A stretch of 64,000 bases of DNA from Escherichia coli (GTDB lineage: Bacteria; Pseudomonadota; Gammaproteobacteria; Enterobacterales; Enterobacteriaceae). The stretch is taken from the NCBI RefSeq assembly GCF_002854065.1, contig NZ_CP024147.1. The stretch is one strand, 5' to 3'. A program made the translations under genes and the position numbers. Within the stretch, counting starts at the first letter, position 1, and every line of letters starts with the position of its first letter. Shown here piece after piece: positions 6,309 to 52,400 of the stretch. The notes beneath the pieces are model-generated. The model made no database searches. It was given only the letters and a program-made list of their open reading frames with translations, and was not told the DNA's origin.

Positions 6309-6323
6309 GGTAATGACTCCAAC

Positions 6324-6827
6324 TTATTGATAGTGTTTTATGTTCAGATAATGCCCGATGACTTTGTCATGCAGCTCCACCGATTTTGAGAACGACAGCG
6401 ACTTCCGTCCCAGCCGTGCCAGGTGCTGCCTCAGATTCAGGTTATGCCGCTCAATTCGCTGCGTATATCGCTTGCTGATTACGTGCAGCTTTCCCTTCAG
6501 GCGGGATTCATACAGCGGCCAGCCATCCGTCATCCATATCACCACGTCAAAGGGTGACAGCAGGCTCATAAGACGCCCCAGCGTCGCCATAGTGCGTTCA
6601 CCGAATACGTGCGCAACAACCGTCTTCCGGAGCCTGTCATACGCGTAAAACAGCCAGCGCTGGCGCGATTTAGCCCCGACGTATCCCCACTGTTCGTCCA
6701 TTTCCGCGCAGACGATGACGTCACTGCCCGGCTGTATGCGCGAGGTTACCGACTGCGGCCTGAGTTTTTTAAATGGCGGAAAATCGTGTTGAGGCCAACG
6801 CCCATAATGCGGGCGGTTGCCCGGCAT
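6324..6827 (-). CDS. insB: IS1 InsB (expressed as InsAB-prime transposase by -1 frameshift)
   Basis: ORF track 167 aa recognised as IS1 InsB; overlaps insA in the -1 frame. Confidence 0.9.
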
Positions 6828-7021
6828 CCAACGCCATTCATGGCCATATCAATGATTTTCTGGTGCGTACCGGGTTGAGAAGCGGTGTAAGTGAACTGCA
6901 GTTGCCATGTTTTACGGCAGTGAGAGCAGAGATAGCGCTGATGTCCGGCAGTGCTTTTGCCGTTACGCACCACCCCGTCAGTAGCTGAACAGGAGGGACA
7001 GCTGATAGAAACAGAAGCCAC
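6746..7021 (-). CDS. insA: IS1 InsA
   Basis: ORF track 91 aa [43 protein letters not shown]... recognised as IS1 InsA. Confidence 0.92.
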
Positions 7022-7076
7022 TGGAGCACCTCAAAAACACCATCATACACTAAATCAGTAAGTTGGCAGCATCACC

Positions 7077-7103
7077 CTCTACTTCAACGATATTGGTTTC
7101 CAT
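7077..7103 (-). pseudogene. puuA: puuA 5-prime fragment: start codon plus first 9 codons (METNIVEVE) stranded upstream of IS1
   Basis: Reverse translation from ATG at 7103 gives METNIVEVE then the IS1 end; the same VE(N) codons resume at 6308, consistent with a 9-bp target duplication. Confidence 0.8.
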
Positions 7104-7314
7104 GATTCTTCGCCTTTGGTTTGTTTTCCGCTCGTTATCAAAGCGTAAAATATAATGACCACCATTCGAATCTGTATGCAAACTAAATGTTTGTCAAATG
7201 TTAAATTGAGTTTGCAAAAATGAAAACTCACTGCTAGATTGAAAAAATATTGAACATAAAGGTCATTTAAACCGCAGTAATGGCGATAATTTAGTCCACT
7301 TTGTGAGATTGAGC
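7104..7314. promoter_or_regulatory. puuA / puuD divergent control region with two similar A/T-rich motifs (AAAATATAATGACC 7147-7160; AAAAATATTGAACATA 7243-7258); candidate PuuR operators
   Basis: Motifs read directly; assignment to PuuR is inference from location only. Confidence 0.3.
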
Positions 7315-8079
7315 ATGGAAAATATAATGAACAATCCGGTTATCGGTGTCGTAATGTGCAGGAACAGGCTTAAGGGTCATGCGACCCAGACTCTGCAAGA
7401 AAAGTACCTGAATGCCATCATCCATGCAGGCGGCTTGCCAATTGCGCTGCCACATGCGCTGGCGGAACCGTCGTTACTTGAACAACTTTTGCCGAAACTC
7501 GATGGCATTTACCTTCCTGGTAGTCCCAGCAATGTGCAGCCGCACCTATATGGTGAAAACGGCGATGAGCCTGACGCCGATCCCGGGCGTGATCTTCTGA
7601 GCATGGCGTTAATTAATGCCGCACTCGAAAGGCGCATCCCCATTTTCGCCATCTGCCGGGGTTTACAGGAACTGGTGGTGGCAACCGGTGGTTCGTTGCA
7701 TCGCAAGCTGTGCGAACAGCCTGAATTGCTGGAACATCGGGAAGATCCCGAACTGCCGGTGGAACAGCAATATGCACCGTCGCATGAAGTTCAGGTTGAA
7801 GAGGGGGGATTGCTGTCTGCGTTGTTACCTGAATGTAGCAACTTTTGGGTAAACTCTCTGCATGGACAAGGGGCAAAGGTCGTTAGCCCACGGTTGCGTG
7901 TTGAAGCTCGCTCGCCGGATGGCTTAGTTGAGGCGGTTAGCGTCATCAATCATCCTTTTGCGCTGGGCGTACAGTGGCACCCGGAATGGAACAGTAGCGA
8001 GTACGCGCTTTCGCGTATATTGTTCGAGGGCTTTATCACCGCTTGTCAGCACCATATCGCTGAAAAACAGCGACTCTGA
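7315..8079 (+). CDS. puuD: Gamma-glutamyl-GABA hydrolase PuuD (class I glutamine amidotransferase-like)
   Basis: ORF track 7303..8079; start trimmed to MENIMNNPVIG giving 254 aa, the K-12 length. Confidence 0.9.
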   Translation: MENIMNNPVIGVVMCRNRLKGHATQTLQEKYLNAIIHAGGLPIALPHALAEPSLLEQLLPKLDGIYLPGSPSNVQPHLYGENGDEPDADPGRDLLSMALINAALERRIPIFAICRGLQELVVATGGSLHRKLCEQPELLEHREDPELPVEQQYAPSHEVQVEEGGLLSALLPECSNFWVNSLHGQGAKVVSPRLRVEARSPDGLVEAVSVINHPFALGVQWHPEWNSSEYALSRILFEGFITACQHHIAEKQRL

Positions 8080-8105
8080 CCACTACAGTTTAAGGAAATG
8101 CAAAT

Positions 8106-8663
8106 ATGAGTGATGAGGGACTGGCGCCAGGAAAACGCTTGTCGGAAATCCGCCAGCAGCAGGGGCTTTCACAACGTCGTGCCGCCGAACTCTCCGGGCT
8201 GACTCACAGTGCTATCAGTACGATAGAACAAGATAAAGTCAGCCCTGCCATCAGTACGCTGCAAAAGCTGCTGAAGGTGTATGGTCTGTCACTCTCGGAA
8301 TTCTTTTCCGAGCCGGAAAAACCTGATGAGCCGCAGGTCGTCATTAATCAGGACGATTTAATTGAGATGGGCAATCAGGGTGTGTCAATGAAGCTGGTTC
8401 ATAACGGTAAGCCGAATCGCACGCTGGCGATGATCTTTGAAACGTACCAGCCGGGCACAACCACTGGGGAAAGAATTAAGCATCAGGGTGAGGAAATAGG
8501 CACTGTACTGGAAGGTGAAATTGTTCTGACGATTAATGGTCAGGATTACCACCTCGTCGCGGGGCAAAGTTATGCCATTAATACCGGCATCCCGCACAGT
8601 TTCAGTAATACGTCGGCAGGTATTTGCCGAATTATCAGCGCCCATACGCCCACCACGTTTTAA
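8106..8663 (+). CDS. puuR: HTH-cupin transcriptional repressor PuuR
   Basis: ORF track 185 aa; XRE-type HTH (LSQRRAAELSGLTHSAISTIE) plus C-terminal cupin; synteny. Confidence 0.9.
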   Translation: MSDEGLAPGKRLSEIRQQQGLSQRRAAELSGLTHSAISTIEQDKVSPAISTLQKLLKVYGLSLSEFFSEPEKPDEPQVVINQDDLIEMGNQGVSMKLVHNGKPNRTLAMIFETYQPGTTTGERIKHQGEEIGTVLEGEIVLTINGQDYHLVAGQSYAINTGIPHSFSNTSAGICRIISAHTPTTF

Positions 8664-8812
8664 TCTTTTTGTTCTGTAAGCCGGGTAAGCGCAATGCGCC
8701 CGGCAATCCATAAAGAATGTCGCCAGAAATAAACGGGCATACGGCCCGGGGATCTCTGCGCCCTGACGTTCACAAACTGCATATATCTGATAGACGTGAA
8801 ACAGGAGTCATA

Positions 8813-10300
8813 ATGAATTTTCATCATCTGGCTTACTGGCAGGATAAAGCGTTAAGTCTCGCCATTGAAACCCGCTTATTTATTAACGGTGAATATACTG
8901 CTGCGGCGGAAAATGAAACCTTCGAAACATCCGATCCGGTTACCCAGGCACCGCTGGCGAAAATTGCCCGCGGCAAGAGCGTCGATATCGACCGTGCGGT
9001 GAGCGCAGCACGCGGCGTATTTGAACGCGGCGACTGGTCACTCTCTTCTCCGGCTAAACGTAAAGCGGTACTGAATAAACTCGCCGATTTAATGGAAGCC
9101 AACGCCGAAGAGCTGGCACTGCTGGAAACTCTCGACACCGGCAAACCGATTCGTCACAGTCTGCGTGATGATATTCCCGGCGCGGCGCGCGCCATTCGCT
9201 GGTACGCCGAAGCGATCGACAAAGTGTATGGCGAAGTGGCGACCACCAGTAGCCATGAGCTGGCGATGATCGTGCGTGAACCGGTCGGCGTAATTGCCGC
9301 CATCGTGCCGTGGAACTTCCCGCTGCTGCTGACTTGCTGGAAACTCGGCCCGGCGCTGGCGGCGGGAAACAGCGTGATTCTAAAACCGTCTGAAAAATCA
9401 CCGCTCAGTGCGATTCGTCTCGCCGGGCTGGCGAAAGAAGCAGGTCTGCCGGATGGCGTACTGAACGTAGTAACGGGTTTTGGTCATGAAGCGGGGCAGG
9501 CGCTGTCGCGTCATAACGATATCGATGCCATCGCCTTTACCGGTTCAACCCGTACCGGGAAACAGCTGCTGAAAGATGCGGGCGACAGCAACATGAAACG
9601 CGTCTGGCTGGAAGCGGGCGGCAAAAGCGCCAACATCGTTTTCGCTGACTGCCCGGATTTGCAACAGGCGGCAAGCGCCACCGCAGCAGGCATCTTCTAC
9701 AACCAGGGTCAGGTGTGCATCGCCGGAACGCGCCTGTTGCTGGAAGAGAGCATAGCTGATGAATTCTTAGCCCTGTTAAAACAGCAGGCGCAAAACTGGC
9801 AGCCGGGCCATCCACTTGATCCCGCAACCACCATGGGCACCTTAATCGACTGCGCCCACGCCGACTCGGTCCATAGCTTTATTCGGGAAGGCGAAAGCAA
9901 AGGGCAACTGTTGTTGGATGGCCGTAACGCCGGGCTGGCTGCCGCCATCGGCCCGACCATCTTTGTGGATGTAGACCCGAATGCGTCCTTAAGCCGCGAA
10001 GAGATTTTCGGTCCGGTGCTGGTTGTCACGCGTTTCACATCAGAAGAACAGGCGCTACAGCTTGCCAACGACAGCCAGTACGGCCTTGGCGCGGCGGTAT
10101 GGACGCGCGACCTCTCCCGCGCGCACCGCCTGAGCCGACGCCTGAAAGCCGGTTCCGTCTTCGTCAATAACTACAACGACGGCGATATGACCGTGCCGTT
10201 TGGCGGCTATAAGCAGAGCGGCAACGGTCGCGACAAATCCCTGCATGCCCTTGAAAAATTCACCGAACTGAAAACCATCTGGATAAGCCTGGAGGCCTGA
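8813..10300 (+). CDS. puuC: Gamma-glutamyl-gamma-aminobutyraldehyde dehydrogenase PuuC
   Basis: ORF track 8717..10300; start trimmed to MNFHHLAYWQDKA (495 aa); aldehyde dehydrogenase family. Confidence 0.9.
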   Translation: MNFHHLAYWQDKALSLAIETRLFINGEYTAAAENETFETSDPVTQAPLAKIARGKSVDIDRAVSAARGVFERGDWSLSSPAKRKAVLNKLADLMEANAEELALLETLDTGKPIRHSLRDDIPGAARAIRWYAEAIDKVYGEVATTSSHELAMIVREPVGVIAAIVPWNFPLLLTCWKLGPALAAGNSVILKPSEKSPLSAIRLAGLAKEAGLPDGVLNVVTGFGHEAGQALSRHNDIDAIAFTGSTRTGKQLLKDAGDSNMKRVWLEAGGKSANIVFADCPDLQQAASATAAGIFYNQGQVCIAGTRLLLEESIADEFLALLKQQAQNWQPGHPLDPATTMGTLIDCAHADSVHSFIREGESKGQLLLDGRNAGLAAAIGPTIFVDVDPNASLSREEIFGPVLVVTRFTSEEQALQLANDSQYGLGAAVWTRDLSRAHRLSRRLKAGSVFVNNYNDGDMTVPFGGYKQSGNGRDKSLHALEKFTELKTIWISLEA

Positions 10301-10301
10301 A

Positions 10302-11582
10302 ATGACCGAACATACCAGCAGTTATTACGCCGCCAGTGCGAATAAATACACGCCATTCGACACGCTGAATGAGTCAATCACCTGCGACGTTTGCGTGGTC
10401 GGCGGCGGCTATACCGGGCTGTCTTCCGCGCTACATCTGGCGGAAGCGGGCTTTGACGTAGTGGTTCTCGAAGCCTCACGCATCGGCTTTGGCGCCAGCG
10501 GACGCAACGGCGGACAGCTTGTGAACTCCTACAGCCGCGACATTGACGTGATCGAAAAAAGCTACGGCATGGACACCGCCCGTATGCTCGGCAGCATGAT
10601 GTTTGAGGGTGGTGAGATCATCCGCGAACGTATCAAACGTTATCAGATTGACTGCGACTACCGCCCCGGCGGTCTGTTTGTGGCGATGAATGATAAACAG
10701 CTCGCCACACTTGAAGAGCAGAAAGAGAACTGGGAACGCTACGGCAATAAACAGCTGGAGATGCTGGACGCCAACGCCATTCGCCGCGAGGTCGCCAGCG
10801 ATCGCTACACTGGTGCGCTGCTGGATCACAGCGGCGGGCATATTCACCCGCTGAACCTCGCCATTGGTGAAGCCGATGCCATTCGTCTCAACGGCGGACG
10901 TGTGTATGAGCTTTCTGCGGTGACGCAGATCCAGCACACCACGCCCGCCGTGGTGCGTACTACCAAAGGCCAGGTGACGGCGAAGTATGTGATTGTCGCC
11001 GGGAATGCGTACCTGGGCGATAAAGTGGAGCCGGAACTGGCGAAGCGTAGTATGCCGTGCGGCACGCAGGTGATCACCACTGAGCGGCTGTCAGAAGATT
11101 TAGCCCGTTCGCTGATCCCGAAAAACTACTGTGTGGAAGACTGTAACTATCTGCTTGATTACTACCGTCTTACCGCCGACAACCGTTTGCTGTACGGCGG
11201 CGGCGTGGTGTACGGCGCGCGCGACCCGGATGACGTTGAGCGTCTTGTGGTGCCGAAACTGCTGAAAACCTTCCCGCAGTTGAAGGGCGTGAAAATCGAC
11301 TATCGCTGGACGGGCAACTTCCTGCTGACCCTGTCGCGTATGCCGCAGTTCGGTCGCCTCGATACCAACATCTATTACATGCAGGGTTACAGCGGCCACG
11401 GCGTCACCTGTACTCATCTTGCCGGACGTTTGATTGCCGAACTGCTGCGCGGCGACGCCGAACGTTTCGACGCCTTCGCCAATCTGCCGCATTACCCGTT
11501 CCCCGGCGGGCGCACGCTGCGTGTGCCGTTTACCGCGATGGGCGCGGCTTATTACAGCCTGCGCGATCGTCTGGGCGTTTAA
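10302..11582 (+). CDS. puuB: Gamma-glutamylputrescine oxidase PuuB (FAD-dependent)
   Basis: ORF track 426 aa; N-terminal FAD-binding GxGxxG (VCVVGGGYTGLS). Confidence 0.9.
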   Translation: MTEHTSSYYAASANKYTPFDTLNESITCDVCVVGGGYTGLSSALHLAEAGFDVVVLEASRIGFGASGRNGGQLVNSYSRDIDVIEKSYGMDTARMLGSMMFEGGEIIRERIKRYQIDCDYRPGGLFVAMNDKQLATLEEQKENWERYGNKQLEMLDANAIRREVASDRYTGALLDHSGGHIHPLNLAIGEADAIRLNGGRVYELSAVTQIQHTTPAVVRTTKGQVTAKYVIVAGNAYLGDKVEPELAKRSMPCGTQVITTERLSEDLARSLIPKNYCVEDCNYLLDYYRLTADNRLLYGGGVVYGARDPDDVERLVVPKLLKTFPQLKGVKIDYRWTGNFLLTLSRMPQFGRLDTNIYYMQGYSGHGVTCTHLAGRLIAELLRGDAERFDAFANLPHYPFPGGRTLRVPFTAMGAAYYSLRDRLGV

Positions 11583-15106: not shown

Positions 15107-15465
15107 TGGCGGGCATTAATCTCAATAAAAAATTATGGCGTATTCCACAGCAGGGCATGGTCCGTGGCGTCTGCGCCGGGATTGCCAACTATTTTGATGT
15201 ACCGGTAAAACTGGTGCGTATCCTGGTGGTGCTGTCGATTTTCTTCGGTCTGGCGCTGTTTACCCTGGTTGCTTACATCATTTTGTCATTTGCGCTTGAT
15301 CCAATTCCGGACAACATGGCCTTTGGTGAGCAGCTACCTTCCAGCAGCGAATTGCTGGATGAAGTCGACCGTGAACTGGCGGCAAGTGAAACGCGTTTAC
15401 GCGAGATGGAACGTTATGTCACTTCCGATACTTTCACGTTACGTAGCCGTTTCCGTCAACTGTGA
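15106..15465 (+). CDS. pspC: Phage shock protein C
   Basis: ORF track 119 aa; start overlaps pspB stop; TM protein. Confidence 0.9.
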
Positions 15466-15473
15466 GGAAAGTT

Positions 15474-15695
15474 ATGAATACTCGCTGGCAACAGGCCGGG
15501 CAAAAGGTGAAGCCTGGTTTCAAATTAGCAGGCAAGCTGGTACTTCTTACCGCACTGCGCTATGGCCCGGCGGGTGTGGCGGGCTGGGCGATAAAATCAG
15601 TTGCTCGCCGACCGCTGAAAATGTTGCTGGCTGTGGCGCTGGAACCGCTGTTAAGTCGGGCTGCTAATAAACTGGCACAGCGTTATAAAAGGTGA
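15474..15695 (+). CDS. pspD: Phage shock protein D
   Basis: ORF track 15462..15695; start trimmed to MNTRWQQAG (73 aa). Confidence 0.85.
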
Positions 15696-15769
15696 GGGGA
15701 GTTTCGCAAAAATTGTTAAATCTCAGGCCTATAATGGATGGCAATTTTCATCCATAGAAGGACGCTTAC

Positions 15770-16084
15770 ATGTTTAAAAAAGGCTTACTTGCTCTGGCAC
15801 TGGTGTTTTCACTGCCCGTTTTTGCCGCTGAACACTGGATCGATGTTCGTGTTCCAGAGCAGTATCAGCAAGAGCACGTTCAGGGGGCCATCAATATTCC
15901 CCTGAAGGAAGTGAAAGAGCGCATTGCCACCGCCGTTCCCGATAAAAACGACACCGTGAAAGTGTATTGCAATGCCGGACGCCAGTCAGGGCAGGCAAAA
16001 GAGATCCTTAGCGAGATGGGATATACCCACGTTGAGAACGCCGGTGGCCTGAAAGACATCGCAATGCCGAAGGTCAAAGGTTAA
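15770..16084 (+). CDS. pspE: Periplasmic rhodanese PspE (thiosulfate sulfurtransferase)
   Basis: ORF track 104 aa with signal peptide and rhodanese active-site Cys (VYCNAGRQS). Confidence 0.9.
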   Translation: MFKKGLLALALVFSLPVFAAEHWIDVRVPEQYQQEHVQGAINIPLKEVKERIATAVPDKNDTVKVYCNAGRQSGQAKEILSEMGYTHVENAGGLKDIAMPKVKG

Positions 16085-16101
16085 CAAATTACTTATTGAG
16101 C

Positions 16102-16131
16102 GGTGTAAACAACGCCGCTTATTCATTTGAT
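16102..16131 (+). terminator. Putative terminator after pspE (agcggtgtaaacaacgccgct then T-rich tail)
   Basis: Imperfect hairpin with G-U pair followed by TATTCATTTG; read directly. Confidence 0.4.
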
Positions 16132-16202
16132 AAATCAAAATTAACCCACATTATTATCTCCAGTATCTAATCCTTTCTACAGCTTTCTGGCACAGGACAG
16201 CA

Positions 16203-17600
16203 ATGAAGCGACTTAAAAATGAACTTAATGCGCTGGTGAATCGGGGTGTCGACAGACATCTGCGCCTCGCCGTAACCGGACTTAGCCGCAGCGGCAAAAC
16301 GGCGTTTATCACTGCGATGGTCAATCAGTTGCTCAATATTCACGCCGGAGCACGCTTGCCGCTGTTAAGCGCGGTGCGTGAAGAACGGCTGCTGGGCGTA
16401 AAACGCATTCCCCAGCGTGACTTTGGCATTCCGCGCTTCACCTATGATGAAGGGCTGGCGCAGTTATATGGCGATCCACCTGCCTGGCCAACGCCAACGC
16501 GCGGCGTCAGCGAAATTCGCCTGGCGCTACGTTTTAAATCGAACGATTCGCTGCTACGCCACTTTAAGGATACCTCCACGCTGTATCTGGAGATTGTGGA
16601 TTATCCCGGCGAATGGTTGCTCGACCTGCCGATGCTGGCGCAGGACTATTTAAGCTGGTCGCGCCAGATGACGGGCTTACTTAATGGTCAGCGCGGCGAA
16701 TGGTCGGCGAAATGGCGAATGATGTGCGAAGGGCTGGACCCGCTAGCGCCTGCCGACGAAAACCGGCTGGCAGACATTGCCGCCGCGTGGACCGATTATC
16801 TCCACCACTGTAAACAGCAGGGGCTGCACTTTATTCAGCCTGGGCGCTTTGTCTTGCCGGGGGATATGGCAGGTGCGCCCGCGCTGCAATTCTTCCCGTG
16901 GCCGGATGTCGATGCCTGGGGCGAGTCCAAACTCGCGCAGGCCGATAAGCACACCAATGCCGGAATGCTGCGCGAGCGGTTTAATTATTACTGCGAGAAA
17001 GTGGTGAAGGGGTTCTATAAGAATCATTTTCTGCGCTTTGACCGCCAGATTGTGCTGGTGGATTGCCTGCAACCTCTCAACAGTGGGCCACAGGCATTTA
17101 ATGATATGCGTCTGGCGCTGACGCAGCTGATGCAAAGTTTCCACTATGGGCAGCGTACCCTGTTCAGGCGTTTGTTTTCGCCGGTTATCGATAAGCTATT
17201 GTTTGCTGCCACTAAAGCGGACCATGTGACCATCGATCAGCACGCCAATATGGTTTCATTGCTGCAACAACTAATTCAGGATGCCTGGCAAAATGCGGCG
17301 TTCGAAGGGATCAGCATGGATTGCCTGGGGCTGGCGTCAGTTCAGGCGACCACCAGTGGCATTATTGATGTTAACGGTGAGAAAATCCCGGCGCTGCGCG
17401 GTAATCGACTTAGCGATGGCGCACCGCTCACTGTTTATCCTGGCGAAGTTCCCGCACGTTTGCCTGGTCAGGCGTTCTGGGATAAGCAAGGCTTCCAGTT
17501 TGAGGCATTTCGTCCGCAGGTGATGGATGTCGACAAACCACTACCGCATATTCGTCTTGATGCTGCGCTGGAATTTTTAATAGGAGATAAATTGCGATGA
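16203..17600 (+). CDS. ycjX: Uncharacterised P-loop NTPase YcjX (DUF463)
   Basis: ORF track 465 aa; Walker [10 protein letters not shown]; sequence recognised as YcjX. Confidence 0.9.
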
Positions 17601-32152: not shown

Positions 32153-32668
32153 TTACAGCAAAAGATAACCTTCGTGGCGCAATAACCACTCTTTTCGCTG
32201 AACTCCGCCTGCATATCCGGTCATGGTGCCGTTTCGGCCAATAACCCGATGGCAAGGTACGACGATGCTGATGGGATTCGATCCGTTTGCCGCACCAACG
32301 GCACGCGCCGCGCCAGGGCGGCCCAATTGTTCAGCCAGTTGGCCGTAATGCATTACCTGCCCGCAGGGAATGGTGCGTAGTGTTTTCCAGACTTCGCGCT
32401 GAAATGGCGTCCCCCCTGTGGCAGTGGGAAGCGTATCAATAATGCTAAGATTACCGGCAAAATAATCACGAAGCTTGTCGCTTAAACCGCCTGGGTTGGT
32501 GGCAGAAATGCGCTCATAGCCTTCTTTGCGATAATGGATGTCCAGAAGCTGCACCATGCGTTCGCTGTACTCTTCCCATTCAACCGCCCGCAGACGAAAT
32601 TGCTCATCGCAAATCACCCACAGTGGACCCAGTGGCGTGGCAATTTTTTCTTCAAGTAATCTCAGCAT
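32153..32668 (-). CDS. ogt: O6-alkylguanine-DNA alkyltransferase Ogt
   Basis: ORF track 171 aa; active-site motif PCHRVIG. Confidence 0.92.
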
Positions 32669-32678
32669 CCGTTCTCTC

Positions 32679-32747
32679 TTAAGACAAACGTGGGTAAATC
32701 CCCGGACCTATCGGCAGACCAACAAGATACCACGCCAGCAACATCAG
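32679..32747 (-). pseudogene. abgT: Residual 3-prime end (22 codons + stop) of abgT, truncated by IS1
   Basis: Reverse translation [26 protein letters not shown] runs from the IS1 end to a stop 10 nt before the ogt start; abgT is the K-12 upstream neighbour of ogt. C-terminal identity is from synteny, not exact recall. Confidence 0.55.
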
Positions 32748-32802
32748 GGTGATGCTGCCAACTTACTGATTTAGTGTATGATGGTGTTTTTGAGGTGCTC
32801 CA

Positions 32803-33078
32803 GTGGCTTCTGTTTCTATCAGCTGTCCCTCCTGTTCAGCTACTGACGGGGTGGTGCGTAACGGCAAAAGCACTGCCGGACATCAGCGCTATCTCTGCTC
32901 TCACTGCCGTAAAACATGGCAACTGCAGTTCACTTACACCGCTTCTCAACCCGGTACGCACCAGAAAATCATTGATATGGCCATGAATGGCGTTGGATGC
33001 CGGGCAACCGCCCGCATTATGGGCGTTGGCCTCAACACGATTTTCCGCCATTTAAAAAACTCAGGCCGCAGTCGGTAA
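32803..33078 (+). CDS. insA: IS1 InsA
   Basis: ORF track 91 aa, same protein as copy 1. Confidence 0.92.
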
Positions 33079-33500
33079 CCTCGCGCATACAGCCGGGCAG
33101 TGACGTCATCGTCTGCGCGGAAATGGACGAACAGTGGGGATACGTCGGGGCTAAATCGCGCCAGCGCTGGCTGTTTTACGCGTATGACAGGCTCCGGAAG
33201 ACGGTTGTTGCGCACGTATTCGGTGAACGCACTATGGCGACGCTGGGGCGTCTTATGAGCCTGCTGTCACCCTTTGACGTGGTGATATGGATGACGGATG
33301 GCTGGCCGCTGTATGAATCCCGCCTGAAGGGAAAGCTGCACGTAATCAGCAAGCGATATACGCAGCGAATTGAGCGGCATAACCTGAATCTGAGGCAGCA
33401 CCTGGCACGGCTGGGACGGAAGTCGCTGTCGTTCTCAAAATCGGTGGAGCTGCATGACAAAGTCATCGGGCATTATCTGAACATAAAACACTATCAATAA
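32997..33500 (+). CDS. insB: IS1 InsB
   Basis: ORF track 167 aa, same protein as copy 1. Confidence 0.9.
33054..33060 (+). promoter_or_regulatory. IS1 A6C slippery motif (AAAAAAC) for programmed -1 frameshift producing InsAB-prime
   Basis: Motif read directly in the insA/insB overlap; mechanism is established IS1 biology. Equivalent motif is present in copies 1 and 3. Confidence 0.6.
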
Positions 33501-33515
33501 GTTGGAGTCATTACC

Positions 33516-33656
33516 GGTTCGTAGCTGACTAAACGTGAGTTCTTGCATCAACAGTCGCGCCGCGCTATTGGCATAAATTAACTGTTCCTCAAAGGGCGAA
33601 ACGATCCAGACAGGACTGGTGAGTAAGTCCAGGGTATTGAAGTTGTGCGTAATCAT
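33516..33656 (-). pseudogene. dgcM: Residual 5-prime end (~47 codons, MITHNFNTLDLLTSPVWIVSPFEEQLIYANSAARLLMQELTFSQLRT) of diguanylate cyclase dgcM (ydaM), truncated by IS1
   Basis: ORF track 33435..33716 runs into IS1; the portion outside IS1 resembles the DgcM N-terminal PAS region as I recall it; divergent from zntB as in K-12. Confidence 0.6.
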
Positions 33657-33889
33657 TGAGATCCCATTATTTTTATCAATTTTTGTTGCTATCCGATCGC
33701 AAAAAAGCCACATCATATGATCAGATAATTCTGATAATGATAGACGCTATTTAACACTTCACACGGTTTGTATACGGAAAAGCATTTTGCTTTTTGTATT
33801 CAATTTAGACAGAATTTTATTAATCATTTCAGGGTAATGGGGTGATGAGATGTTGCGTAACAGGGCCAGAAGGCTAGACTACAAAATAA

Positions 33890-34894
<1,005 letters not shown>

Positions 34895-34989: not shown

Positions 34990-35111
34990 GCAGGTGAATG
35001 CAACGTCAAGCGATGGGCGTTGCGCTCCATATTGTCTTACTTCCTTTTTTGAATTACTGCATAGCACAATTGATTCGTACGACGCCGACTTTGATGAGTC
35101 GGCTTTTTTTT
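34990..35111 (+). ncRNA. fnrS: FnrS small RNA (FNR-activated, Hfq-dependent)
   Basis: Sequence gcaggtgaatgcaacgtcaagcgatgggcgttgcgctccatattgtc... recognised from memory as FnrS; ends in hairpin gacgccgactttgatgagtcggc plus T8; lies between zntB and dbpA as in K-12. Confidence 0.85.
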
Positions 35112-36873: not shown

Positions 36874-37809
36874 TTATTTCACTTCAACCACATTCAGCCG
36901 TAACTCATCCAACTGATTTTCATCTTCTTCTGGCTGCCAGCCCGCCGGTTGTAGTGGGATCTCTTCGCGATCAAACGCCAGATCACCCCCGTTAACCACT
37001 TCAGAACCGTGGGTGATGCCTTTGAAATCGAACAGGTTGGTATCGCACAGATGCGACGGCACCACATTCTGCATCGCGCTGAACATCGTCTCGATACGCC
37101 CTGGATAACGTTTATCCCAGTCACGCAACATGTCAGCAATCACCTGACGTTGCAGGTTAGGCTGTGAACCGCACAGGTTGCACGGAATAATGGGGAACGC
37201 TTTTGCATCGGCAAATCGCTGAATATCTTTCTCGCGGCAGTAGGCCAGCGGACGAATAACGATATGTTTGCCATCATCGCTCATCAGTTTCGGAGGCATA
37301 CCTTTCATCTTGCCGCCGTAGAACATATTTAAGAACAGCGTCTGCAGGATATCGTCACGATGGTGACCCAGCGCGATCTTCGTCGCCCCCAGTTCCGTTG
37401 CGGTACGATAAAGAATACCGCGACGAAGGCGAGAACACAGTGAGCAAGTGGTTTTGCCCTCTGGAATCTTCTCTTTCACGATACCGTAAGTGTTCTCTTC
37501 AACAATCTTGTACTCAACGCCCAGCTTTTCAAGATACTCGGGCAGAACGTGCTCCGGGAAGCCCGGTTGCTTTTGATCGAGGTTAACAGCCACCAGCGAA
37601 AAATTGATTGGCGCGCTTTGCTGCAAATTGCGCAGAATCTCCAGCATGGTATAGCTGTCTTTACCCCCGGAGAGGCAAACCATGATGCGATCGCCTTCTT
37701 CAATCATATTGAAGTCAGCAATGGCTTCGCCCACGTTACGACGCAGGCGTTTTTGTAATTTGTTCAGGTTGTATTGTTCTTTCTTGCTAATTTCTTGATT
37801 TTGCGACAT
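36874..37809 (-). CDS. ttcA: tRNA 2-thiocytidine synthetase TtcA
   Basis: ORF track 311 aa; PP-loop SGGKDS and CxxC pairs. Confidence 0.92.
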
Positions 37810-39693: not shown

Positions 39694-39920
39694 TGAATAA
39701 ATCCTTTAGTTATTTTATTTGCCTTTTATCCCCATTTCGGGGAGTGAAAACATCCTAAAGGAGAAGTTCAGTTAGCCGATAAATATCATTTGTTACGCCT
39801 TAAGTAAAACCTTAATCAAATAATTCCTCTGAAATGATAATAAGTCTGGTGAATGTATCGAAGATAATACATACAAAATAAAAATTATACTTTTTATTTT
39901 CTATACGTTATTCTGCGCGG

Positions 39921-40029
39921 GTTATATGCCTTTATTGTCACAGATTTTATTTTCTGTTGGGCCATTGCATTGCCACTGATTTTCCAACATATAAAAAGAC
40001 AAGCCCGAACAGTCGTCCGGGCTTTTTTT
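39921..40029 (+). ncRNA. micC: MicC small RNA (OmpC translational repressor)
   Basis: Sequence gttatatgcctttattgtcacagattttattttctgttgggccattgcattgccactg... recognised from memory; terminator gcccgaacagtcgtccgggc + T7; lies between ompN and pfo as in K-12. Confidence 0.85.
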
Positions 40030-40057
40030 AGAATTGGATAATCCTTATCCAGAGCAT

Positions 40058-49001: not shown

Positions 49002-49408
49002 ATTATAGTTGGCTACAAAATGTATCTATTAATGATCTTTTACAGTATTTAAACTGACGTTAGCATGCTTAATTACCGTGGGTATTTCTACAAAAACCTT
49101 ATATATCCTTCCCTTAAATAACAAATCATTACCAATATATATGTAATCACAAAATATATATGCAGCGTCAATGAATTATTAGTGTGTTTTTGTTTTTTGT
49201 CGTTAATTTTTAGATTGAAGTGAGTTTTTTGTGGAATATAATTCCATCAACTGTTTTTTTGTATGCTTTTACTTGCCTGATTTTAATATTGATTTTGTGA
49301 ATTATATAAGCATTTCTTTATTGCTTATTTCACTATGAATATTTACTACGATTTATCTTCAAATTCTGCATGGCTTGTTACGCACGGTCTAGATCTAAGG
49401 AATTTTAT

Positions 49409-52400
49409 ATGCAAAGGAAAAAATTATTGTCTGTTTGTGTTGCCATGGCGTTAAGTAGCCAGACATGGGCTGCGGATACTTCAATACCCGACTCAACCGA
49501 AAAAACACGTAAGTCCAGTAAGATAACATGTCCGGCAAATATTCATTCCCTGAGCAAAGAGCAGCTAGAAAATTTATCCGCGGAGTGCAGAGAAAATAAA
49601 GATAGTGCAGTTTTACCATGGGCAGCTGCAGGTCTTGCTGCAGTAGCTACGGGAATTGCTATATATACCTTAAGTGACGATGACAATCACCACCATAATA
49701 ACTCCCCAGTTCCGGATGATGGCGGTGATACGCCAGTTCCGCCAGACGACGGCGGTGATACGCCGGTTCCGCCAGATGACGGCGGTGATACGCCGGTTCC
49801 GCCAGATGACGGCGGTGATACGCCAGTTCCGCCAGATGACGGCGGTGATACGCCAGTTCCGCCAGATGACGGCGATGATACGCCGGTTCCGCCAGATGAC
49901 GGCGGTGATACGCCAGTTCCGCCAGATGACGGCGGTGATACGCCAGTTCCGCCAGATGACGGCGGTGATACGCCGGTTCCACCAGATGATGGCGGTGATA
50001 CGCCAGTTCCAGACGACGGCGGTGATACGCCTGTTCCGCCAGACGATGGTGGCGATACCCCGGTTAAACACGATCCTGTCGTCTATAAAAATGACGTAAC
50101 CTGGGATCAGGACGCGAAAACCGTCAAAATTCGCGAAACCACCTTTACCTACAGCCAAAATGCCGATGGGAGTTACACCTTAACCGCGCCTGATGGCCTG
50201 ACGACGATAGTCAAGGGCTGGACAGTCCATGACGACAGCAACACCGTCATCTTTGATGGCGTAAATACGGCAGGTGGCATCACCTGGAGCTACGACGATG
50301 ATGGGCTCATCCATATCACTAAAGAGGCCGGTGTCGTTGTTGATGGCACAACCGGAACTGCGATTGATTTTGGTAATGCGATCATCACCGATCAGGGCGG
50401 CAATACGGCGCTGAATGGCGGTACTGTCATGACGGTTGAGGGTGACAACATCACCCTCAACAACGACGGTAAAACGACCGCCATCGGCGAGGGTTCGGTC
50501 GTTGGTATCCTTACTGGTGACGATATCACTATCAATAACAACGGCGAGACGGAAGTTGACGGCGGTACCGCAGTAATCATCAATGGCGATAATGCTACGC
50601 TGAACACTGCGGGCGACTCGACCATCACCAATGGTGGTACGGGTAGCCTTATCAATGGCGATAATGCGCGGGTCGATAATCAAGGTACCATGAGCGTTGA
50701 CGGTGAGAATTCCACTGGCTCGAAAATTGTCGGTGACGGTGCCACCATCAAACAGGAAGGCGACTTATACGTAAGCGGTGGTGCGCACGGTATTGACGTT
50801 GACGGCAATGATACGTTCGTTAGCAACAAAGGTAATATTACGGTCATCGAAGATAACTCTATTGGCATGCTGCTTGATGGTGATGGCGTCAGCGTGATCA
50901 ACATGGGCGACCTCAATGTTGGTCAGGCCGCAGCGGGTGAAAATGCCATTGGCATTCAGATCGACGGTGATAATGCGACATTTGTTAACGTTGGTGATAT
51001 TTCCGCGACCAATGCCGGAACCGGTGTCAGCGTTGCTGGGGATAAAGCTAATATTTCACTCGCGGGTGGGTTAGACGTTGGGGATTTCTCCACCGGTCTT
51101 GATGTCTCTGGCAATAATAACAACATGACGCTGGCGACTTATGAGCTGAATGTGACAGGGCAAAAAGCGACGGGTGTTAATGTTTCGGGTGATGGCAATA
51201 CGATTGAAATCGCAGGCAGCATTCTGGTTGATAAAGATCAGAAAGCCGATAATGCGCAACCTTACTTCTTTAATCCCTCAACCGGCGTAAATATCAGCGG
51301 TAATAACAATGACGTCACGCTGGATGGTCAGTTAACCGTTGTTGCTGATAGCGAAACCACTACGCGTTCCTATGCAAGTTACGACGGTGCTCAGGAGCAC
51401 ATTGCGGGTATTGTTATTGCTGGCGATGACAATACCTTCACGCTTAATGGCGGTGTCCATTTTGTCGGTGAAAAAAATGTCATGGATGATGGCTCAAAAC
51501 CTGCCGCATCTCGTCGTGGTATCGGAGATACACCGCTTATGAGCGTTGATGGGCATTCCTCAGTCTACCTCAATGGTGAGTCAACCATCAGCGGTGAGTT
51601 CCCGCTGGGTTTCGAAAATCTCATTCAACTGAGTAATGGCGCGGAGCTGGAGATTGGCGCTGACGCAACGTTTGATATGAGTGATGTGGATTCTTTCACT
51701 TATTATTATCGTGTAGCGTTATCCACTATTAGTATTGATTATGGTGCGAAGGCGACAAACAACGGTGAAGTGGAACTGAAAAATATCGGTTTTGCGGCTG
51801 CCTGGAATAAAGATTCAACGGTAATCAATAACGGATCCATTGGCCTGGCGATGTACGATTTTGGTACCGACCCGGCACCAAAAGTCTTTGACGTTGAATA
51901 CGGTGGGATTGGCGTTAACAATGGTACCATGACCACCAAAATGATGAATCAGCACAGTGTGCTGAATTATCCGGCAGAGTGGAACTTGTCTGATGGTACC
52001 TCTTTCAATAACAAGGCATTAGGGCTGACAGGTATGCTTGCCAGCTACTCGTCATCCATTCTGAACGGCGAAACGGGCATTATTGATATGTATGGCCGTG
52101 GCAGTGTAGGGATGCTAGCCATCGATAAATCAACCGCGGATAACGAAGGGCAAATCACCCTGGATACGCTGTGGGTTGATGAAAATGATGAAACATCGCT
52201 GCGTAATAATGTTGCAAATAGCACGGCGAAAGATTTCGGTGTGGGAATGGCTTCAGGTACCGATGCCTATAATGGGGCATTAACTAAAGCCACGGCAACC
52301 AACCACGAGAATGGTGTGATTACTGTCTACAACGCCGGTGCGGGGATGGCGGCGTATGGGAATACTAATACGGTCATTAACCAGGGAACCATCAACCTGG

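Follow-up and report, generated by a model that had tools for sequence, protein, structure and literature searches.

Deletions anchored on insertion sequences (IS elements) have been known as a kind since the 1970s. Adjacent deletions promoted by IS1 were reportedly described by Reif and Saedler in 1975 and by Turlan and Chandler in 1995, the classical cases being deletions in the gal region of E. coli K-12 that are said to arise by intramolecular replicative transposition. The locus described here, which lies in a 64,000-nucleotide stretch of Escherichia coli DNA (the window), resembles those classical deletions in that the element sits at the joint, no target duplication is present, the flanks are collinear and the interval beside the IS end is lost. 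The classical deletions could also be extended in later steps, as in the path that we propose below. The present case differs in having no laboratory ancestor; the order of the steps and the original insertion site are reconstructed, and both flanks may have been trimmed.

PMC11708052 summarises the general adjacent-deletion mechanism. It reports that, in evolving E. coli B, insertion was followed by adjacent deletion and sometimes by extension, and that the IS copies associated with deletions were always without duplications. The IS150 adjacent deletions of that long-term evolution experiment share with our case the multi-step path, here a proposed one, and the absence of duplications, but they involve another IS family and come from a laboratory time series, whereas ours comes from a comparison of natural isolates. 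IS-driven loss of curli or c-di-GMP functions provides a second point of reference, with an IS1 in csgB of E. coli O78:K80 (cited in PMC6029578) and a degenerate dgcM, along with other degenerate cyclases, in S. flexneri (PMC11327459). There, as here, the csgD/curli circuit has lost one of its nodes to a mobile element or to decay. The dgcM gene of S. flexneri 2457T, however, carries a nonsense mutation and not an IS1 deletion, and our case is known from sequence alone, with the curli genes of the strain lying outside the window. S. flexneri had been considered as the origin of the window in view of its IS1 density, and was rejected because of that nonsense mutation and because the nearest genomes are those of E. 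coli. Set against these systems, the rearrangement is a standard IS-anchored deletion; the specific allele was absent from every collection searched.

The IS1 element at the abgT-dgcM joint

A census using a 65-nt probe from the left end of IS1, for which the chance expectation was 0, returned three matches in the window, at 7012-7076 (minus strand), 32748 (plus) and 57716 (plus). These elements are referred to as copies 1, 2 and 3 (Table 1). The window therefore holds three IS1 copies per 64 kb, two of them 100% identical: copy 2 is the same as copy 1 and differs from copy 3 by one base. Copy 2 also matches at 100% the annotated IS1B-family elements of two other E. coli genomes, CUWW06 and TOK-001, where the same DNA carries the annotation of an IS1B-family transposase with a programmed frameshift. 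Its ends, GGTGATGCTGCCAACTTACTGAT and GGTAATGACTCCAACTTATTGAT, form imperfect terminal inverted repeats of about 23 bp, and InsB' lies in the -1 frame relative to InsA, with AAAAAAC at IS1 position 307. The defining features of the IS1 family, namely a length of about 768 bp, inverted repeats and an insA/insB' -1 frameshift at A6C, are thus all found in copy 2.

Table 1. Positions in the window of copy 2, its flanking features and the two other IS1 copies
Feature	Position	Strand	Details and basis
IS1 copy 1	6309..7076	-	Simple insertion with 9-bp duplication CTCTACTTC, near puuA codons 7-9
ogt coding sequence, intact	32153..32668	-	171 aa; ORF list; annotated in CUWW06 and 100416
abgT 3' remnant	32679..32747	-	Last 22 codons and stop; K-12 BLAST and translation
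ogt promoter remnant	32717..32747	-	Comparison of window, K-12 and 100416; numbering from PMC7419079
ogt promoter, retained +1	32717	-	Position inferred from PMC7419079 numbering
ogt promoter, retained -10 TATCTT	32729-32724	-	Position inferred from PMC7419079 numbering
ogt promoter, retained extended -10 TG	32732-32731	-	Position inferred from PMC7419079 numbering
IS1 copy 2, intact	32748..33515	+	768 bp; sequence analysis and identity to annotated IS1B-family elements
IRL of IS1 copy 2	about 32748-32770		
insA of IS1 copy 2	32803-33078		
A6C frameshift site of IS1 copy 2	33054-33060		
InsAB' of IS1 copy 2	reading to 33500		
IRR of IS1 copy 2	about 33493-33515		
dgcM 5' remnant	33516..33656	-	Codons 1-47; K-12 BLAST and translation
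Undisturbed right neighbourhood	33657..34894	+	dgcM upstream region, ynaN 33850-33897, zntB 33911-34894
IS1 copy 3	57716..58483	+	Simple insertion in ydbD with 9-bp duplication GTCACAAGC

A previous reading of this DNA, made from the letters alone (the sequence-only reading), had placed copy 2 at 32679-33656, an interval that does cover the element but also takes in both gene remnants. The same reading had noted that the element is without a target duplication, which is indeed the case: the 9-bp flanks are CAACATCAG and GGTTCGTAG, and no duplication of 8, 9 or 10 bp was present. Since copies 1 and 3 are bordered by perfect 9-bp duplications, the missing duplication is specific to copy 2. The lack of an 8- to 9-bp duplication is a signature of rearrangement after insertion and is not evidence against the identity of the element as IS1.

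The breakpoints were determined by BLAST alignment of the window to positions 1,385,000-1,425,000 of K-12 MG1655. The left flank ends at K-12 position 1,400,315 (15316 in the L004 coordinates of this locus, in which abgT occupies 15248-16774), and the right flank starts at 1,407,655 (L004 22656, with dgcM at 21564-22796). The right breakpoint is ambiguous by 2 to 3 bp because the right end of IS1 also matches the ancestral sequence there. This alignment, which had been proposed as a check, together with translation bears out the earlier statement that the left side adjoins the last 22 codons of abgT and the right side the first 47 or so codons of dgcM. Relative to K-12, the window lacks an interval of 7,339 bp, which is less than the 8 to 9 kb estimated previously. 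The genes assigned to that interval (abgT, abgB, abgA, abgR, mcaS, smrA and dgcM) were correctly listed: missing from the window are the rest of abgT, abgB, abgA, abgR, mcaS, smrA and codons 48-410 of dgcM. The remnants are 97.5 to 98.5% identical to K-12 abgT and dgcM, and the flanks are collinear and co-oriented with these two genes as found in thousands of genomes, with only the interval between them gone.

None of the abgT-dgcM interval was found elsewhere in the window when it was aligned to K-12. The absence of mcaS and of most of dgcM that had been read from the letters stands in both cases for the window. An Rfam search of the window gave no match to McaS while finding FnrS and MicC, and the 3' 1,092 bp of dgcM (363 codons, encoding the PAS and GGDEF domains of this PAS-PAS-GGDEF diguanylate cyclase) are absent from it. 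The frame of the dgcM remnant enters the right end of IS1 and terminates at 33435; in the resulting hybrid ORF of 73 aa, 47 of the 410 dgcM codons are fused to 26 codons derived from IS1. An exact-protein search with two possible DgcM'-IS1 hybrid ORFs (73 and 93 aa) returned no record. Outside the joint the surroundings are undisturbed. The flank on the ogt side is 100% identical to the ogt region of the genome of 100416, and the right neighbourhood is 100% identical to CUWW06 from 33775 on and 98.9% identical to K-12. The end of abgT and the start of dgcM have been brought to either side of copy 2 by a genuine deletion.

Such a joint could in principle be produced by an assembler if two IS1 copies in reality flanked the segment and were collapsed into one, with the interval between them skipped. 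IS1 is a 768-bp repeat present in many copies, and the exact pair of junctions was absent from every other collection searched, as such an artefact would have it. The other two IS1 copies in the window nevertheless have exact duplications and the proper synteny with two independent complete genomes, and independent complete assemblies have comparable IS1-anchored deletions at the same locus. An artefact of this kind is scarcely credible.

An alternative abgT'-dgcM locus in near-clonal relatives

Among 5,426 complete E. coli genomes, the 648 bp to the left of copy 2 were matched at 100% in two, 100416 and CUWW06. Both are near-clonal to the window, with 7 mismatches and 1 gap over 53.8 kb for CUWW06 and 14 mismatches and 2 gaps over 50.1 kb for 100416; the latter is 100% identical to the window across a left flank of 6,648 bp. 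In 100416 the locus is uninterrupted, with no IS1 between abgT' and dgcM, and reads ogt, abgT' (149 bp), 'abgR, mcaS, AraC-like, HlyD-like, MFS, smrA, dgcM. Its abgT stub, the last 149 bp of the gene, is joined directly to the last 214 bp or so of an abgR that is only 80% identical to K-12. McaS is intact (106.8 bits), and a 3.6-kb insert between mcaS and smrA encodes an AraC-family regulator, an HlyD-family protein and a frameshifted DHA2 MFS permease. This alternative locus is widespread: in 1,315 of the 5,426 genomes at least 80% of it was matched in one place.

CUWW06 retains the abgT'/'abgR joint and is identical to 100416 up to locus position 6893. The joint sits 80 bp inside the interval deleted from the window and is hence not visible there. 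Position 32747 of the window corresponds to position 6648 of the 100416 locus and position 33516 to 12434, with 5,785 bp between them. On this background the loss comprises 80 bp of abgT', the abgR remnant, mcaS, the AraC/HlyD/MFS cassette, smrA and 1,092 bp of dgcM. Given its near-clonality with CUWW06 and 100416, the ancestor of the window very likely had the abgT'/'abgR joint, and it probably carried the alternative locus and not a K-12-like one.

The sequence-only reading had assumed a K-12-like ancestor with the full abgT-abgB-abgA-abgR-mcaS-smrA-dgcM order, from which a single IS1-mediated event would have removed 7.3 kb. The remnants are compatible with this, since at 97.5 to 98.5% identity to K-12 they contain nothing that excludes a K-12-type interval. 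The relatives disfavour it: both genomes with the 100% left flank have the alternative locus or one derived from it, whereas identity over the same 648 bp does not exceed 99.4% in genomes whose abgT is intact, and the near-clonal CUWW06 keeps the abgT'/'abgR joint 80 bp past the breakpoint of the window. We regard a K-12-like starting point as quite improbable.

An ancestor with the alternative locus also changes the reading of the abg genes. It had been proposed that the IS1 event cost the strain p-aminobenzoyl-glutamate uptake and hydrolysis, but the relatives were already without abgB, abgA, most of abgT and most of abgR. The abgT, abgB and abgA genes were most probably lost before IS1 arrived, by another route. 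The ability to take up and hydrolyse p-aminobenzoyl-glutamate had therefore most probably disappeared before, and independently of, the IS1 event. The locus is an example of reference bias. Compared with K-12, the scar seems to be a single 7-kb deletion that took out seven genes; compared with its own clone, the abg loss is mostly older and the set removed consists of the AraC/HlyD/MFS cassette, mcaS, smrA and dgcM.

Origin of the deletion at copy 2

We consider that an IS1 insertion into an ancestor with the alternative locus, followed by one or more transposase-mediated adjacent deletions, best accounts for the joint, with a probability of roughly 0.6. In this scheme the ancestor would have had the order ogt, abgT' (149 bp), 'abgR, mcaS, an AraC-like gene, HlyD-like and MFS efflux genes, smrA and dgcM, and IS1 would have inserted somewhere within the abgT'-dgcM stretch. 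At least one adjacent deletion mediated by the IS1 transposase would then have removed DNA between the IS1 end or ends and nearby targets; in such an intramolecular replicative transposition the element would stay and the segment that separates one of its ends from the new target would be lost. The expected outcome would be one intact IS1 lying between abgT codon -22 and dgcM codon 47, its two flanks unrelated to each other, at a net cost of 5,785 bp. We infer the order of the steps at copy 2 from what is directly observed, namely the scar, the missing DNA, and the relatives with their own deletions.

The scar is equally compatible with recombination between two direct IS1 copies, and the sequence-only reading had named both routes. 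Recombination would have required two independent direct insertions, the first having duplicated CAACATCAG in abgT' and the other GGTTCGTAG in dgcM, after which a RecA-dependent exchange would have left a hybrid IS1. It predicts the same scar, with collinear flanks that lack a duplication; identical IS1 copies are plentiful in the clone (3 in 64 kb, 2 at 100%), and recombination between IS copies is a frequent cause of missing duplications (PMC11708052). Against this, three events are needed instead of two, and IS1 was found at either site in 0 of the 5,426 complete genomes, an absence from a sample that does not by itself exclude such insertions. The sister genomes and other lineages moreover show a fixed junction with variable far ends, which is typical of adjacent deletion. 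Recombination is a possible but unlikely origin, and the comparative evidence, in the form of nested IS1-anchored deletions in sister genomes and in other lineages, favours adjacent deletion.

At copy 2 itself, the IS is retained at the joint with collinear and co-oriented flanks, as in an adjacent deletion, and the second hallmark, one fixed junction with variable far ends, is seen in the neighbours and not at this copy. Neither junction of copy 2 occurs in any of the 5,426 complete genomes, hence no intermediate is in hand, and the exact 40-nt left junction had no match in species-representative genomes or metagenome contigs. CUWW06 carries an identical, co-oriented IS1 at the abgT-dgcM locus with both junctions unlike those of the window, the left at position 6893 of the 100416 locus and the right 119 bp upstream of the dgcM start. 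For the window and CUWW06 together, parsimony counts four events for one shared IS1 insertion with three deletions, and likewise four for two independent insertions with one deletion each. CUWW06 is about twice as near to the window as 100416 is; this would suit shared descent of the IS1 without proving it.

The two other copies served as controls within the window. Copy 1 is missing from both CUWW06 and 100416. At the position of copy 3, CUWW06 has the same right junction as the window and has lost window positions 49318-57715 (8.4 kb) on the left side only, and 100416 has a co-oriented IS1 and has lost positions 49659-61925, that is, DNA on both sides. Three near-clonal genomes thus show an insertion, a one-sided deletion and a two-sided deletion around the same IS1 copies, which points to ongoing IS1-driven erosion outside the laboratory.

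This series bears on whether IS1 could have transposed and deleted in the same event, with no prior resident copy. Duplication-free IS movements with a concomitant rearrangement have been proposed, including a single-step deletion with movement of IS5 in E. coli C (PMC11708052), and no intermediate was found among the 5,426 complete genomes. However, each of the 14 deletions in evolving E. coli B was traced to adjacent deletion in several steps (PMC11708052), and copy 3 shows the multi-step path directly in the same clone. A single step at copy 2 is very improbable.

Deletions of dgcM at this locus were then compared across the species. The 3' 1,092 bp of dgcM were present at 80% coverage or more in 5,374 of the 5,426 complete genomes, absent from 37 and partial in 15, giving a total of 52 deficient genomes. 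An IS1 was found at the joint in all of the dgcM-deficient genomes that were inspected, namely CUWW06, the ST536 pair, ECONIH5, MS 115-1 and strain 1579; the junction geometry of MS 115-1 or strain 1579 recurs in many further records of the junction search. In another lineage, one IS1 variant always has the same left junction (K-12 locus position 16405), while its right junction takes three positions, at about codon 85 of dgcM (ST536), just upstream of zntB (ECONIH5) and at uspF (MS 115-1). No near-identical relocated dgcM was found in CUWW06 among the best matches, where a clonal copy would rank second; for the genome of the window this counts only indirectly. Simple IS1 insertions occur as well: GPEC657 has one with a duplication, adjoining an abgR remnant, and in TOK-001 the dgcM-ynaN spacer carries one, bordered by an 8-bp duplication.

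The deletions in the ST536 mussel isolates, ECONIH5, MS 115-1, strain 1579 and CUWW06 resemble that of the window in IS1 orientation, in the lack of a duplication and in the removal of part or all of dgcM. They differ in that the breakpoints vary from lineage to lineage, neither junction of the window being common to any of them. The IS1 variants of the other lineages are 95.6% and 91.0% identical to the copy in the window, and some of these deletions start from a K-12-type abg locus and not from the alternative one. Overall, the dgcM-locus deletions represent at least four independent breakpoints and three IS1 sequence variants, all in one orientation. The orientation was the same in all eight IS1 elements examined at the abgT-dgcM locus, which, given five or six independent events, is only marginally unexpected. 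One may conjecture that dgcM is a recurrent target of IS1-anchored deletion and that loss of the DgcM-MlrA-csgD pathway is advantageous in some niches, in the manner of a convergent pathoadaptive change; we hold this to be doubtful. If it were true, dgcM loss would be convergent. In this clone the same scar is also predicted to uncouple the DNA-repair gene ogt from nitrate and NarL.

Predicted effects on csgD and ogt

Judging from the truncation seen in the window, we infer that the strain is without functional DgcM. In the model summarised in PMC6029578, DgcM provides input to csgD together with MlrA. By analogy with the established K-12 work, loss of DgcM would weaken or abolish the DgcM/MlrA-dependent activation of csgD. 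McaS and SmrA are likewise predicted to be missing, as mcaS and smrA are absent from the window. The predicted phenotypes are an absence of DgcM and McaS input to csgD/curli and biofilm control and, as described below, a probable loss of the nitrate induction of the alkyltransferase Ogt. Their importance is modest; the useful outcomes are the corrected K-12-centred reading and the observation on the ogt promoter, a consequence that had been overlooked in the sequence-only reading.

The start of ogt is 10 bp past the end of abgT, which places the ogt promoter within the 3' end of abgT. In the published dissection of this promoter, the -10 hexamer is TATCTT with its second base at -11 (p11C), NarL sites are centred at -44.5 and -77.5, nitrate induction needs both of them, and the tandem arrangement is kept among E. 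coli strains (PMC7419079). Placed by that numbering, the IS1 junction falls at -30/-31. Upstream of -30, left-end DNA of IS1 replaces the -35 region, NarL II (-44.5) and NarL I (-77.5). Plausible 7-2-7 NarL sites are present in K-12 and 100416, TATCTTTTTGGTGGTA at -52 to -37 and TACTTACTATTCGTTA at -85 to -70, and in the window the tandem sites are absent, with IS1 sequence at both positions. With the joint at -30/-31, ogt is predicted from the sequence and the published dissection (PMC7419079) to have probably lost its NarL-dependent induction by nitrate. Since the extended -10 element TGgTATCTT survives, some basal transcription of ogt may be possible.

A hybrid promoter for ogt formed with the left end of IS1 was considered and rejected, as the outward TTGGCA lies 26 bp from the -10 element, too far to serve as a -35. 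A scan for consensus promoters and terminators around the joint returned only the insA promoter region of IS1, a result that is uninformative for ogt because the scan missed the activator-dependent ogt promoter even in the intact relative. The older abgT'/'abgR joint lies at about -110 of ogt, just beyond the -105 to +1 fragment studied in PMC7419079.

IS1 copies in puuA and ydbD

Two of the IS1 copies in the window were compared with CUWW06 and 100416, the two complete E. coli genomes that are near-clonal with it (see the table for coordinates). IS1 copy 1 lies approximately 18 to 26 nt inside puuA, which encodes glutamate-putrescine ligase. Because neither near-clonal genome has this element, the disruption is a recent, strain-specific knockout of step one of the Puu putrescine pathway.

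Coordinates of features in the window and in the extracted locus of strain 100416
Feature	Coordinates	Strand	Remarks
IS1 copy 1	6309-7076	minus	Simple insertion; 9-bp duplication CTCTACTTC
IS1 copy 3	57716-58483		In ydbD; duplication intact
FnrS sRNA gene	34990-35107		Intact, right of the scar; 134.8 bits
MicC sRNA gene	39918-40038		Intact, right of the scar; 125.4 bits
Alternative locus	L003 (strain 100416) 6580-10750		Equivalent of the interval deleted at window 32747/33516

At ydbD, the IS1 in CUWW06 has the same right junction as copy 3, and the sequence corresponding to 49318-57715 is missing, including a ydbA-like autotransporter gene, pdxI and the 5' part of ydbD. The 100416 genome carries an IS1 co-oriented with copy 3, where 49659-61925 is gone with loss on both sides, reaching through ynbA and ynbB and into part of ynbC. 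With an intact copy 3, a one-sided loss and a two-sided loss, these clone-mates thus represent three stages of IS1-driven erosion around 49318-61925.

The abgT-dgcM-zntB region

The alternative arrangement of the interval deleted in the window is widespread and was found in 1,315 of the 5,426 complete E. coli genomes searched. It retains 149 bp of abgT, joined to an abgR tail that has only 80% identity to that of K-12, and it carries a 3.6-kb AraC/HlyD/MFS cassette ahead of smrA; in 100416, McaS is intact. This older abgT'/'abgR joint maps to approximately -110 of the ogt promoter, barely beyond the fragment studied experimentally, which spans -105 to +1 (PMC7419079). Judged from its position, the joint looks as though the ogt promoter was spared.

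All eight IS1 elements at the abgT-dgcM-zntB locus (those in loci L001, L005, L006, L009, L010, L011 and L012 from other genomes, and the window's copy 2 at 32748-33515) share one orientation, which may reflect either an orientation bias or chance. They fall into three sequence variants, with 100%, 95.6 to 98.4% and 91.0% identity to copy 2. In OSUCMP42NDM, NT1W25 and NT1N25 (matches H35-H37), an IS1 appears to lie within or adjoining dgcM at still other positions, to judge by how far the joined matches extend.

Other differences from K-12

The IS5 located between ynaI and ynaJ in K-12 is absent from the window (approximately 29671-29674). The K-12 alignment stops at 37802, within ttcA, at the point where the Rac prophage feature of K-12 starts; beyond it the window runs from ttcA to uspF and ompN, as does CUWW06. 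The segment at 22811-24506, between mpaA and ycjY/pgrR, is also unlike K-12, and aligned with the K-12 ymjC-ymjD segment in only one 139-bp match. In CUWW06, a gene for an SDR oxidoreductase is annotated between mpaA and pgrR, along with two genes for alpha/beta hydrolases.
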